The position numbers are program-made. Below, one piece after another: positions 1 to 3,000 of a DNA stretch of 10,834 nucleotides. The DNA is from PVC group bacterium (GTDB taxonomy: Bacteria > Auribacterota > Erginobacteria > Erginobacterales > Erginobacteraceae): contig JAZDIV010000045.1 in NCBI GenBank assembly GCA_043804695.1, positions 1 through 10,834 of the forward strand, in the 5' to 3' direction. Position 1 is the first letter of the stretch. Every line of letters starts with the position of its first letter.

Positions 1-3000
1 ATTGCGAGGAGCGAAGCGACGAAGCAATCTCAACTCTATGCACAGCAAGAGATTGCTTCCCGCCACGCTTTGCTCGCGGCTTCGGCTAACGCTCGCAATG
101 ACCGCGATCCTTGATGTAAATCCTACAACGGTCGGATTAATAGCTTCGCAACTTATTTAACCACGGATTGTGTGGATTATGCTAATTAAAGAAAAAGCAA
201 TCCGTTTAAACCGTTTAATAATGTTGCTTCAATGCTTGCCCACTCTTATTTTTTCGCAGAAAAAATAAGATCACCGGGCAAGAAAGGCGATCAGGCCGGC
301 CAGCAGCAGCTGGCTGTCAACCAGCATCTCGTGCGCCAGGCCCCGGAAGATGATTCTCCTGTGATAGAGGACGAGGTAAAAACACCCGTAGGCGATCACT
401 CCCAGATACCAGTAACCGGAAGAGTCCACCCATCCCCGGGCGGCGCCCAGGATCAGGAGAAGGGCGACCAGGGTGATGAGGCCGAGGAGCATGATCTTGG
501 TCTTTCTCACCCCCAGGACAACCGGGATGGTCTCGCGGCCGACCAGCCGATCCCCCTGGATATCACGGATAGCGAACAAAGATGACCGGACAAACATGAC
601 GCTGAAGACAAAGATAAAGACCACGAGCACCGAGATAACGGGGACCGCCGGGACCCGGGCGGAGAAGGCCGGGATCAGGACCGCCAGGACCCCCCACCCC
701 AGGGAACTGAAGAACTCCTTCAATCCGGTCAGATGCTTGAGACTCCTTCCCGGGAGGGTGGAGGGCAGGAGGGTGAAGCTGTACGCCAGCCCGGAGAGGA
801 GCGTGAAGACGGTCAAAAGAAAAGCGCCGGCGCCCAGAATCCCGGCGCACCAGAAAGCCGCCAGCAGGGAGAGCGTGTTGAGCAGATACAATTCCTTCCG
901 GTAGCGGAGAAAAAACCGGTACCGGGACGGCTGGCTGAGATGGATCGCCGACTGGTCGGCAAATATGTTGAGGTTATAGACAGCCAGCACGAGGCAGAAA
1001 GAAAGCAGAACCGCGGGCCACTGCACGGGGATCTTCAGGAGGCGCGCGGCGGCGCAGGTCAGGCAGGCGCCGCCGAGCGCGATCAGGACATTCGCCTTCA
1101 CAATTACGGAGAGAAGCCGGCAGAGCCGCCCCAGTTTCGTCCTTTGTCGTTCCCAGGAGCAGCTCCGCAGCCGTTCGACCACCTCCTGGATCAGCCAGTT
1201 CGGCGTGGATGCCCCCGCCGTCACGCCCACGGTCTGAAAACGGCTCAGCGCCACCGGATCAAGTTCATCGGCGGTCTCAACCTGGAAGACCGGTATCCGG
1301 CCCCCGGCGATCCTGGTCAGGCGGGCGGTGTTGGCGCTGTTCCCGCCCCCGACCACGATCAGGGCGTCGACCTTGGCGGCAATATCGACGACTTCTTTCT
1401 GCCGGTCGAGGGTCGAGGCGCAGATCGTCTCGAAAACCAGAGCCTCCCGGAAACGGGCTTTCACGGCGGCGGCGATCTGCCGGTACTCATCCCGGTTCTG
1501 GGTGGTCTGGGAAACCAGACACACCAAGCCGAGGTCGGGAAGTTTCTCAACCCCGTCTGGGCGATTGATCACAAATCCCCTCCCCTCCGTGAAACCCAGA
1601 AGCCCCTCCACCTCCGTGTGTCCCTCATCCCCGAAGATGATGGTGGCATAGCCCTGCCGGGCGTGTTTCCGGATGATTCCCTGCACCTTCAGAACATCGG
1701 GACAGCTGGCATCGCAGACACCGGCGCCGGTCGACTTGAGGGCGTCCCTGACCCGGGGAGAGATGCCGTGGGCGCTGATGACGCAGACATCCCCCGGCCG
1801 GAAAAGCCTCATGTCCCGTGTTGAAGAGATCCGCTTGGAGGAGAGAAGCCGGACGACCTGGGGATTATGAATGAGGGGACCGTAGGTGCGGATCTCTTTT
1901 CCGTCCTCCCGGCGCGCCCGGTCCAGGACCATTTCCAGGGCCCTCCTCACCCCCATGCAGAAACCGGCCTTTCTGGCCGTGATTATTTTCACCGGCATTT
2001 CTCCTTTTCCGGGGAAGTGTAGGCGAAAATGCTCGGATAATCAAGGTGTCTAAAAATCTATTCATTCCCGGAATTTCTGTGCTACTATACTCCCCGCTGG
2101 CAAACGACAAAACCGTTCTCAACCAGACTCGATCGGAAACATCCCATGCCGGATTTCATCGGTGACATCCTCCAGAAGGCCCGGTCCCTGAAAAAAAGGA
2201 TCATCCTCCCCGAAGGGACGGAGCCCCGGGTGCTGGCGGCGGCGAGGGAGATCGCCGCCGATCGGATCGCCGACCTGGTCCTCCTCGGCGATGGCGCCGA
2301 GATCCGGTCCGCCCTGGACAGGATGGGCGTTGACAGCGCCGGGTTCGACATCGTCAATCCGGAGACCTCCGGCCGGGCTGAAACCTATGCGTCCACGCTT
2401 TACGAGCTGCGCAAACATAAAGGCGTGACCCGCCAGGACGCCGCCAGAATGGCGCGGGATCCGTTATACTTCGGGACCATGATGCTCAAGAGCGGAGAAG
2501 CCGACGGGATGGTGGCGGGGGCCGCGAGATTCACCGCCGACATCATCCGTCCCGCCCTCCAGATCATCAAAACCGTGCCCGGAGTCAAAACCGCCTCGGC
2601 CATGTTCTTCATTGTCAAGGACGGTCATCCCTACCTCTTTGCCGATTGCGGTCTTAATAGAAACCCGAACCCGGAACAACTGGCCGACATAACGTTCTCC
2701 ACCGCCCTGACCGCGCGGTTCTTCGGGATCGCGCCAAGAATCGCCCTCCTCTCCTATTCCACCCGCGGTTCCGGCAAAGGAGAGGAAGTCGTCAAAATGG
2801 CCGCGGCCACCCGGCTGGCCAGAGAAAAGCTGGAAGCAAACTACCGCGGAGAATTCGTTATCGACGGGGAGCTGCAATTCGACGCCGCCTTCGACCCCGG
2901 AATCGCCGAGATCAAATGCCCCGGGAGCCCCCTCCGGGGCCGGACCAACGTCTTTATTTTCCCGGATTTAGGTGCCGGCAACATCGCCTACAAGCTGGCG

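Follow-up and report, generated by a model that had tools for sequence, protein, structure and literature searches.

An IspH fused to a divergent UbiA-type membrane domain in a PVC group bacterium

The enzyme IspH is essential and counts as a candidate drug target. In the PVC group bacterium represented by assembly GCA_043804695.1, the gene for this enzyme lies on contig JAZDIV010000045.1, whose 10,834 nucleotides were analysed in full (hereafter the window), and it continues in frame into a membrane domain of the UbiA type. An earlier note on this DNA had rightly asked whether that domain is a prenyltransferase or only a membrane anchor. Here we examine what the fused gene encodes, how widely it occurs, and which functions its membrane half may have kept.

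One reading frame, two domains

The whole ispH-ubiA-like gene occupies positions 271..1998 of the minus strand as one uninterrupted frame of 575 codons plus stop, and neither the ORF list nor the translation has an internal stop. This agrees with the earlier note, which had not stated the strand. A Shine-Dalgarno-like AAGGAG, read from the sequence at 2001..2006 (minus strand), lies 2 nt 5' of the ATG and 8 nt 5' of an alternative GTG start at 1992 (minus strand), use of which would yield the 573-aa form stored in databases. The end of the contig 270 nt past the gene is attributed to a dispersed repeat at 1..130 (no strand assigned), outside the gene: blastn-short against the bacterium's own genome returned 155 hit lines for it, of which many span 107-130 nt at 96-100% identity, and its copies are frequently found at contig ends. 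A scan of the window for Rfam families and tRNA found none.

Two genes could have been joined here by a sequencing, assembly or gene-calling error, and one locus, L064, does have a frameshift at the junction that places the two halves in different frames. It is the only such case among 64 loci. A complete fused ORF is present in 59 of these independent loci, drawn from several phyla, and four more are cut by the start of the locus; 116 of the 190 related proteins collected are built the same way, and the architecture was independently published in 2015 (Rao, O'Dowd, Li, Wang and Oldfield, Chem Sci 2015 6:6813, PMC4746011). The counts of loci and proteins, together with the continuous frame, refute an artefact, to which we assign a negligible probability. 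The fusion is genuine and occurs widely.

A complete IspH, with all three cluster cysteines, makes up the N-terminal ~280 residues. The IspH/LytB domain (residues 5-277; 1168..1986, minus strand) matches Pfam PF02401 (LYTB) over profile positions 1-266 of 267 (276.4 bits against a cut-off of 24.5, E 3e-82), TIGR00216 (ispH) at 257.6 bits against a cut-off of 187.85, and Aquifex IspH (3dnf) with E 2.2e-55. Its predicted model has the trefoil alpha/beta fold, with Foldseek TM scores of 0.81-0.85 (target-normalised) against both 3dnf and E. coli IspH entries, 3ke8 among them, and an rmsd of 1.7-1.8 Å to the E. coli IspH:HMBPP entries. The three [4Fe-4S] ligands were located by alignment to the Aquifex and E. 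coli proteins: Cys14 (codon 1957..1959, minus strand) is kept in at least 90% of 92 fusions, and Cys99 (1702..1704, minus strand) and Cys193 (1420..1422, minus strand) are invariant. H44, H77, H127, E129, T166, S221, N223 and S264 are likewise invariant among the 92 fusions and are identical in the alignment to E. coli IspH residues H41, H74, H124, E126, T167, S225/N227 and S269, which we take to be its substrate-binding and proton-relay residues. With this complement of residues, the IspH half is almost certainly a functional HMBPP reductase.

The fused gene provides the only LYTB match in its own genome (2.97 Mb, 155 contigs, 88% complete), as had been claimed earlier, and likewise the sole match in five of five genomes from other phyla. 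IspG, two polyprenyl-diphosphate synthases and UppS are also encoded in the window's genome. We therefore assign to the fusion the final, housekeeping reaction of the MEP pathway, the conversion of HMBPP to IPP and DMAPP. A MenA-like and a DPPR-synthase-like UbiA gene are present elsewhere in the genome.

The two halves are connected by a helical linker (residues 278-303; 1090..1167, minus strand) that comprises the end of the last IspH helix and a further helix at 288-301; the AlphaFold2 (AF2) model has helices at 267-284 and 288-301 in this region, with pLDDT block means of 90-95. Beyond it, the C-terminal ~270 residues (304-574; 277..1089, minus strand) fold in the model as a nine-helix UbiA-type domain, delimited from AF2 secondary structure, Foldseek and Pfam. 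The long helices span residues 304-320, 327-347, 367-388, 390-405, 426-446, 454-478, 497-520, 526-546 and 553-574. Pfam UbiA (PF01040) matches residues 368-543 (E 9.5e-14, 51.7 bits against a cut-off of 34.2), so that both Pfam domains named in the earlier note were recovered; the match covers profile positions 67-229 of 250 and leaves the first Asp-rich motif outside it. The Foldseek matches include ApUbiA (4od5/4od4; E 7e-6, TM by target 0.68-0.72), AfUbiA (4tq3), DGGGPS (7bpu/6m31) and UBIAD1 (8djk), and solved UbiA structures together range from E 7e-6 to 4e-3 and from TM 0.58 to 0.72 by target. The fusion protein is thus predicted, with high confidence, to be membrane-tethered.

The relative placement of the halves can be judged from the whole-protein AF2 model (pTM 0.90, pLDDT 94.9) and from that of a Brocadia orthologue that is 39% identical (pTM 0.91), two runs that have most of their alignment in common and so are not independent. 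For two domains of equal size, pTM values of 0.90-0.91 suggest confident mutual placement. When the IspH and membrane halves were predicted as separate chains the score was 0.04 against a mark of 0.32, in a run without controls, which weighs neither way on docking. The topology of AfUbiA is N-in, according to its crystal-structure paper (PMC4106721). A cytoplasmic UbiA N terminus and cytoplasmic Asp-rich loops would therefore put the fused IspH on the same side of the membrane as the mouth of the UbiA cavity.

Occurrence and relatives of the fusion

The IspH-UbiA fusion is not new. The paper by Rao et al. describes 47 'Rosetta stone' hybrid sequences, mainly from Desulfobacterales, with all carriers being sulfate-reducing anaerobes; their UbiA part was placed in the CDD class PT_UbiA_5, predicted to have nine transmembrane segments and noted to carry two DXXXD repeats (PMC4746011). 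It was proposed there that IspH feeds the UbiA domain or that the UbiA domain localises IspH; the authors left the function unknown, and the full-length hybrid is said to have resisted expression. The novelty implied by the earlier note falls accordingly, since both the fusion and the feed-or-localise proposal were already in print. A literature search for follow-up on the IspH-UbiA fusion after 2015 found none. Two papers that mention the terms together (PMC4790861 and PMC12419801) were rejected, the mentions being in reference lists or unrelated.

As in the hybrids described by Rao et al., an N-terminal IspH and a C-terminal UbiA-like domain share one polypeptide in this gene. Its membrane half is homologous to that of a Desulfosoma protein (P0035, E 3.9e-16) and of a Thermodesulfobacteriota locus (L062, 33% identity, E 7e-29), and membrane halves including those of Desulfobacterota-type hybrids form one alignable family. 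In contrast to the sulfate reducers of the published description, the closest homologues here carry the names Candidatus Auribacterota, Euphemobacter or Erginobacter, and the host range extends to anammox Planctomycetota, Nitrospinota, Glassbacteria, Edwardsbacteria and Acidobacteriota, in addition to relatives named Auribacterota. This wider host range is one of the additions made here. Among 33 homologue matches, 30 carry both PF02401 and PF01040 at 551-584 aa, which bears out the earlier statement that related fusion proteins exist. The related loci were found with a single pattern, [FGL][DAG]I[RF]DIQGD, taken from a narrower alignment; the list of taxa is therefore biased to that motif and under-represents Desulfobacterota. 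Occurrence outside the phylum, which the earlier note had reported for Planctomycetota and Desulfacinum, was seen in anammox Planctomycetota and in a Desulfosoma MAG; Desulfacinum itself was not seen.

The fusion is not, as the earlier note had it, kept through the phylum. Of 61 genomes sampled evenly across the GTDB phylum, IspH is present in 58 but the membrane half in only 35, although all eight other genomes of the window's own order possess it. The membrane domain was never found apart from IspH in this sample: a search of the 23 genomes with plain IspH for a stand-alone membrane half found no copy anywhere. The domain is thus dispensable in some relatives, and its product is probably non-essential, given that close relatives have lost it. 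On the IspH tree, plain IspHs of three families (f10, f12 and f14) nest among fused ones, and family f14 includes genomes of both kinds. When the membrane-domain tree was rooted with the genome's two other UbiA genes, the outgroups failed to group, with 81 tips under their common ancestor, so no direction (fusion first or stand-alone first) is claimed. Presence of the fusion in the 61 genomes has no clear association with MenA (both in 18, fusion only in 17, MenA-like only in 7, neither in 19).

Outside the UbiA family, IspH carries a different C-terminal module in the IspH-RPS1 fusions of Firmicutes and Fusobacteria, which are mentioned in the same 2015 account (PMC4746011). The IspH half here matches the model for these (NF000907) over positions 2-281, but at 274 bits against a cut-off of 624, and the partner in those proteins is the soluble ribosomal protein S1.

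The putative prenyl diphosphate site

The first motif region of the membrane half (residues 341-359, YNLNIFADQSAIHLSQPSR; 922..978, minus strand) keeps N344, D348 and R359 in the column counts. It reads N344-I-F-A-D348-Q-S-A-I352, so that the Asp beside the Asn and the third Asp of a full NDxxDxxxD are missing, the latter replaced by I352. The second Asp-rich motif and the adjoining L6-7 loop (residues 476-496, AIRDIQGDRLVGRETIPVVLG; 511..573, minus strand) contain an intact D479-IQG-D483 together with G487, E489, T490, P492 and G496. A central Tyr...Lys region (residues 406-427; 718..783, minus strand) contributes Y406, K421 and K427. Across 163 membrane halves D483 is invariant, and G496 (99%), Y406 (98%), G487 (96%), K427 (93%), N344 (88%) and D479 (83%) are strongly conserved, in keeping with the earlier description of the second motif and the first-motif Asn as invariant or nearly so. 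Among the 92 fusions the values are 99% for Y406, 95% for K427, 96% for W435, 95% for R471, 82% for D479 and 100% for D483, with E489 (96%), T490 (93%) and D561 (83%) as further polar positions.

In AfUbiA, as described in PMC4106721, Mg2+ is bound directly by N68 and D72 of the first motif and D198 and D202 of the second, whereas D76 is too distant for direct binding; the N68A and D72A variants lose GPP binding, and Y139 is described as the family's most conserved residue. With equivalences assigned by motif position rather than by structural superposition, counterparts of all four direct ligands are present here (N344, D348, D479 and D483), and only that of D76 is lost. Y406 would be the counterpart of Y139. 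Of the 28 closest relatives, 27 have Asp at position 348 and one has Glu. The earlier note's view of the first motif as otherwise degenerate is right about the third Asp, but overstated as regards D348. It is somewhat more likely than not, judging from these residues, that the UbiA-fold half retains a ligand-binding site.

The solved UbiA enzymes (ApUbiA 4od5, AfUbiA 4tq3, M. jannaschii DGGGP synthase 6m31/7bpu and human UBIAD1 8djk) share with this domain the nine-helix fold, the second DxxxD, the Asn and first Asp of motif 1, and the signature Tyr. They differ from it in lacking a fused IspH and the extra conserved Glu489, and in possessing the third Asp of NDxxDxxxD and the Asp beside the Asn. 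Sequence similarity is weak: in a search of the profile against the PDB, 6m31 gave E 8.7e-8 over just 84 positions and 4tq3 gave E 1.7e-3. Among NCBIfam models, NF010117 (PRK13591), which describes stand-alone UbiA proteins, scores best on the membrane half (E 1e-14) and also matches 21 of the 24 membrane-only sequences of a broader alignment; the motif 2 pattern DxRDxxGDxxxGxxTxPxxxG is common to both groups. However, the 15 stand-alone sequences group in a separate clade (support 0.845), and the stand-alone proteins keep a full N-x-x-x-D-x-x-[E]-D and mostly do not have Glu489. Membership of NF010117 itself was rejected at 54.4 bits against a cut-off of 238, as was that of DGGGP synthase (NF009521/NF009512) at 26.8 bits against cut-offs of 296 and 278. 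The ESM Atlas clusters nearest to the stand-alone relatives are commonest in Methanobacteriota, a lead given by the Atlas label only.

Constraint on the first motif is uneven across the fusions, and this speaks against prenyl transfer. In 112 full-length representatives, counted in a fast MAFFT alignment in which some error is possible, 28 do not have Asp or Glu at 348, 21 have no acid at either 348 or 352, and only 12 have the acid at both positions that would correspond to the first of the two DXXXD repeats in the text of Rao et al., where this gene has DQSAI. Considering the loss of GPP binding in AfUbiA D72A, a fifth of the family may not bind its substrate canonically. In the 133 sequences with an IspH part, an acid at 352 is absent in 110, and residue 489 is Glu or Asp in 131. 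Conversely, 15 of the 17 stand-alone sequences that do have an acid at 352 have none at 489.

Candidate roles of the membrane half

We tentatively favour a housekeeping IspH tethered to a divergent, still ligand-competent prenyltransferase domain. The gene would encode a two-domain inner-membrane protein, whose halves AlphaFold puts confidently into one arrangement. Having kept N344, D348, D479 and D483, with Y406 and K427, the domain would bind a prenyl diphosphate with Mg2+, and the adjacent IspH would supply DMAPP, or a downstream allylic diphosphate might be used. The most likely subsequent step would be transfer of the prenyl group to some lipophilic acceptor. The site would nevertheless be a divergent one, having lost the third Asp of motif 1 and gained the fused-specific E489 in the L6-7 loop. 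True prenyl transfer is, on this sequence evidence, a realistic prospect that falls somewhat short of an even chance. The natural joining of IspH to a prenyltransferase-like membrane domain suggests that substrate may be handed over, or the enzyme regulated, at the surface of the membrane.

UBIAD1 senses GGPP and controls HMG-CoA reductase, and the PDB entry 8djk, found by Foldseek, is titled 'HMGCR-UBIAD1 complex'. By analogy, the membrane half could be a non-catalytic tether and sensor that binds a membrane prenyl (di)phosphate and tunes IspH to the membrane pool, a reading we regard as possible but rather unlikely. The frequent loss of the third motif 1 Asp fits it, as does the conservation of motif 2, Y406, K427, W435 and R471 in a family of which 21 of the 112 representatives have no acid at 348 or 352. 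That the domain and IspH are lost or kept as a unit in the phylum sample, and that the pTM values suggest a fixed interface, also agree with a sensor. On the other hand, the gene and its 27 closest relatives have every direct Mg2+-ligand position and the Tyr intact, which exceeds what a sensor needs; a catalytic role for E489 and the L6-7 loop is just as conceivable, and IspH is not known to be regulated allosterically. A stricter version is improbable: in it the half would be no conventional prenyltransferase but a membrane-embedded sensor, fixed rigidly to IspH, that links the final MEP reaction to the state of the membrane polyprenyl pool. If true, the protein would be a covalently fused bacterial analogue of the UBIAD1-HMG-CoA-reductase pair, and the lineage-wide loss of the third Asp and gain of Glu489 would mark a transition from catalysis to sensing.

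As a passive anchor, the membrane half would be a UbiA-like relic that only places the oxygen-sensitive, ferredoxin-dependent IspH at the membrane, near electron donors or membrane-bound consumers of IPP and DMAPP. Its dispensability in many relatives is compatible with this, and a localising role was also raised in the 2015 account (PMC4746011). Nine helices, however, go far beyond what anchoring requires, and an anchor has no need of conserved charged residues. Alongside the invariant D483, positions Y406, K427, R471, E489 and T490 are kept at 93-99% across at least seven named lineages at ~31% identity. In the close clade (n=15) identity is 67.1% for the membrane half and 70.0% for the IspH half, so that the former changes nearly as slowly as the latter; distant fusions (n=76) have 30.9% and 45.7%. 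As N344, D348, D479 and D483 are all present, an anchor alone is a weaker reading than the earlier note held, and we consider it quite improbable.

In the membrane domain, D348, D483 and E489 are the residues likeliest to matter, and a clean genetic or biochemical test is easily designed. Its occurrence only with IspH in the sampled phylum, and its dispensability in some relatives, are further additions to the published description. Neighbourhoods of the 64 loci contain no gene conserved across phyla and no conserved isoprenoid or acceptor-pathway gene; the former is consistent with an anchor, and the failure to find an acceptor-pathway gene nearby with a sensor. Within single lineages some neighbours do recur, all of them other than isoprenoid genes: DUF502 lies downstream of the fusion gene in anammox loci, a cytidylate-kinase-like gene lies downstream in Glassbacteria loci, and an Ogt-type methyltransferase gene lies downstream in Auribacterota-like loci, where pta, on the opposite strand, lies upstream.

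The fusion gene and its two domains

The gene is a single long open frame of 575 codons at 271-1998 on the minus strand (ORF list and translation). Its product is a genuine IspH, the sole one as far as found, covalently joined to a UbiA-fold domain. An earlier note had reported LYTB and UbiA in one ORF as the only LYTB of the genome, and this is borne out by Pfam, NCBIfam and a genome search that returned a single LYTB match. The Pfam LYTB match spans residues 5-277 (E 3e-82), and the protein scores 257.6 bits against the NCBIfam ispH equivalog TIGR00216 (cut-off 187.85). The IspH half matches Aquifex IspH (3dnf, E 2.2e-55) and E. 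coli IspH over its full length. Across 92 aligned full-length fusions, C99, C193, H44, H77, H127, E129, T166, S221, N223 and S264 are invariant and C14 is at least 90% conserved; these columns hold identical residues in the solved Aquifex and E. coli enzymes. We take the conserved Cys, His, Glu, Thr, Ser and Asn to be the cluster ligands and substrate-binding residues of the IspH literature. In the AlphaFold model of the fusion protein (mean pLDDT 94.9), the IspH half has an rmsd of 1.7-1.8 Å to E. coli IspH:HMBPP structures and a TM by target of 0.83-0.85 (Foldseek). Judged by alignment and model, the IspH half is complete.

The fusion gene is the one LYTB match in its own genome (2.97 Mb, 155 contigs, 88% complete), which also encodes IspG, two polyprenyl-diphosphate synthases, one of them adjoining a MenA-like gene, and a DPPR-synthase-like UbiA protein. 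Together with UppS, these genes indicate an MEP pathway with ordinary consumers, in which the fusion is the only last-step enzyme found. The adjoining synthase and MenA-like prenyltransferase lie on contig C10 at 4514-6144, and the score of the latter sits at the TIGR00751 threshold of 102.15 (102.1 bits by hmmscan, 101.9-102.2 in the genome search). The UppS (PF01255) match, on contig C128 at 6479-7142, is split over two overlapping frames (profile 1-136 and 134-219), reflecting either a frameshift or an assembly error.

Pfam assigns residues 368-543 of the membrane half to UbiA (E 9.5e-14; 51.7 bits, cut-off 34.2). The best NCBIfam model for the C-terminal half is NF010117 'prenyltransferase' (54.4 bits, under its cut-off of 238), with DGGGP-synthase models ranking lower. 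AlphaFold predicts nine long helices past residue 304, which Foldseek matches to ApUbiA (4od5/4od4; E 7e-6 to 2e-5, TM by target 0.68-0.72), and further to AfUbiA (4tq3 and related entries), the M. jannaschii DGGGP synthase (7bpu/6m31) and UBIAD1 (8djk). Sequence comparison ties the domain only weakly to solved structures (6m31, E 8.7e-8 across 84 positions; 4tq3, E 1.7e-3); on the model, the membrane half is predicted to have a UbiA fold.

The model has a pTM of 0.90 (92-row alignment). A Brocadia orthologue, 39% identical, gave a pTM of 0.91 and a pLDDT of 94.7 (86-row alignment), the two runs having most alignment rows in common. From the definition of pTM, values of 0.90-0.91 for two equal-sized domains imply a confidently predicted relative placement. 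In AfUbiA, the N terminus lies on the cytoplasmic side together with both of the Asp-rich loops (PMC4106721). Given this N-in topology of UbiA proteins, the fused IspH would by analogy share a membrane face with the mouth of the cavity and the pair of Asp-rich loops.

Active-site residues and the role of the membrane half

The fusion family, and the idea that IspH feeds UbiA, are already known, having been published in 2015 (Rao et al., Chem Sci, PMC4746011). That paper describes 47 IspH-UbiA sequences, mainly from Desulfobacterales and 'all in sulfate-reducing bacteria', with 'two DXXXD repeats'; the UbiA part is termed PT_UbiA_5, is there given no assigned function, and was modelled with Phyre2 on ApUbiA. 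Its authors proposed that the UbiA domain brings IspH to the membrane and that IspH in turn gives a UbiA-like prenyltransferase high local IPP/DMAPP; expression of IspH-UbiA from three species failed. A search of the open-access literature found no follow-up. Our additions are modest: a wider host range, a domain that in the phylum sample never stands on its own and is sometimes lost, an exact account of which active-site residues are kept, and a Glu489 specific to the fused form.

In AfUbiA, two Mg2+ ions are coordinated by two residues of motif 1 (N68, D72) and two of motif 2 (D198, D202), and D76 lies too far off for direct contact with Mg2+; GPP binding is abolished by N68A and by D72A, and no residue in the family is more highly conserved than Y139 (PMC4106721). 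Compared with the AfUbiA motif NDxxDxxxD, the fusion protein has N344 for N68, D348 for D72 and I352 for D76, with D479, D483 and Y406 present. So read, only the indirect Asp (the D76 equivalent) appears to be missing. Across 163 aligned membrane halves, D483 is conserved at 100%, G496 at 99%, Y406 at 98%, G487 at 96%, W435 at 94%, K427, P443 and T490 at 93%, P492 at 92%, N344 at 88%, E489 at 84%, D479 at 83% and R359 at 77%; position 348 is D in 63% and E in 12%, and position 352 is Asp in just 17%. In the mechanism best supported, which we put forward tentatively, IspH is tethered to the membrane and its partner domain would still bind prenyl diphosphate with Mg2+ and may carry out a divergent, non-essential prenyl transfer supplied locally by IspH.

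Position 348 is D in 27 of the 28 closest relatives and E in the other. Among 112 full-length fusion representatives, an acid (D/E) stands at 348 in 84, at 352 in 19, at both in 12 and at neither in 21, counts that are approximate given a fast alignment of a variable loop. Motif 1 thus appears looser across the wider family than among the closest relatives. The main rival reading, a domain serving as a non-catalytic tether or sensor, is on balance unlikely. A pure membrane anchor is improbable: charged and polar residues (K427, R471, D479, D483, E489, T490, E557 and D561) are conserved at 73-100% inside the helical region, which argues against a passive role. For 15 close relatives, mean identity to the fusion protein is 70.0% over IspH and 67.1% over the membrane half; for 76 distant fusions the two values are 45.7% and 30.9%.

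Fifteen membrane-only sequences form a clade of their own (support 0.845). Unlike the fusion protein, they carry a full N-R-x-T-D-x-x-E-D motif, with R/K at 489 instead of Glu; in the ESM Atlas such stand-alone clusters are mostly from Methanobacteriota, which is a lead only. E or D occupies this position in 131 of the 133 sequences that include an IspH part; fusion to IspH is thus accompanied by loss of the third Asp and by the appearance of Glu489. To our knowledge this pairing is absent from the 2015 description.

Distribution and loss

The earlier note had the fusion kept through the phylum, which does not hold: in an even sample of 61 genomes from the window's GTDB phylum, IspH occurs in 58 and the membrane half in just 35 (E<=1e-5). 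Thirty of the 35 membrane halves share one open frame of 555-641 aa with IspH, four are interrupted by contig ends or a frame change (genomes G021, G023, G054 and G060) and one is a weak match on a different contig (G037). The fusion is present in all eight other genomes of the window's order. No free-standing membrane domain was found at the same threshold in the 23 genomes with IspH and no membrane half, where IspH mostly occupies frames of ~290-320 aa. In this sample the membrane domain occurs solely joined to IspH and is lost without replacement. In a FastTree phylogeny of 40 IspH domains (14 plain, 26 fused; modest support), nine plain IspHs fall outside all fused ones (split support 0.81), and the other five, from families f10, f12 and f14, nest within fused sequences of several phyla, which suggests, as a lead, secondary loss of the membrane half. 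MenA-like genes and the fusion show no consistent co-occurrence across the 61 genomes (both in 18, fusion only in 17, MenA-like only in 7, neither in 19).

Close homologues carry the source names Candidatus Euphemobacter frigidus, Candidatus Auribacterota and Candidatus Erginobacter occultus. Searched alone against 1.84 billion cluster representatives, the membrane half gave 1382 matches at E<=1e-3, 486 at E<=1e-10 and 32 at E<=1e-30; 80 of the best 150 are 550-599 aa long. The 190 stored relatives comprise 116 full fusions, 22 with a cut IspH part and 52 membrane-only sequences. A genome scan confirmed 64 loci, whose taxa are biased by the single peptide pattern used: three Auribacterota-like, many from anammox Brocadiales, and others from Nitrospinota, Glassbacteria, Edwardsbacteria, Thermodesulfobacteriota and Acidobacteriota/Holophagae. 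The published restriction to sulfate reducers is therefore too narrow. The fused ORF is complete in 59 of the 64 and cut at the locus start in four; in the last, from a Nitrospinota MAG (L064, 6100-7880), the halves lie in adjacent frames, with the frame change at the IspH/membrane junction, the sole interruption away from a contig end. In all five genomes of other phyla examined, the fusion is the only LYTB match. Neighbouring genes across the 64 loci are housekeeping genes that differ between phyla. A same-strand DUF502 membrane protein lies 3' of the fusion gene in 39 loci, all anammox-type Planctomycetota (e.g. locus L026, 6624-7355), immediately downstream in 38 and second in one; 27 loci have an opposite-strand GT2 glycosyltransferase upstream.

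Start site and surroundings in the window

Read from the sequence, AAGGAG lies just upstream of the start on the minus strand. Since the protein is listed in databases with 573 residues and relatives start MKII..., the ATG at 1998 and a GTG two codons further, at 1992 (both minus strand), are both possible starts. Immediately 3' of the stop codon is a perfect 10-bp A/T-rich inverted repeat, CTTATTTTTT-ctgcg-AAAAAATAAG (245-269, minus strand); it has neither a G+C-rich stem nor a T run, ruling out a classical intrinsic terminator. Only 270 nt of contig follow the gene, ending in a dispersed repeat (1-130, with a partial copy at 3181-3237). This repeat gave 155 blastn-short hit lines on many contigs of the same genome, often at contig ends and often 96-100% identical across 107-130 nt, and probably explains the contig end.

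The upstream neighbour, on the opposite strand, is pta (Pfam/NCBIfam). Beyond it are a 251-aa ORF that matches neither Pfam nor NCBIfam models (3481-4236, plus strand) and a 348-aa uridine-kinase/PRK-family protein (4702-5748, plus strand) that scores below the udk equivalog cut-offs and whose kinase match begins at about residue 75, leaving an N-terminal extension.
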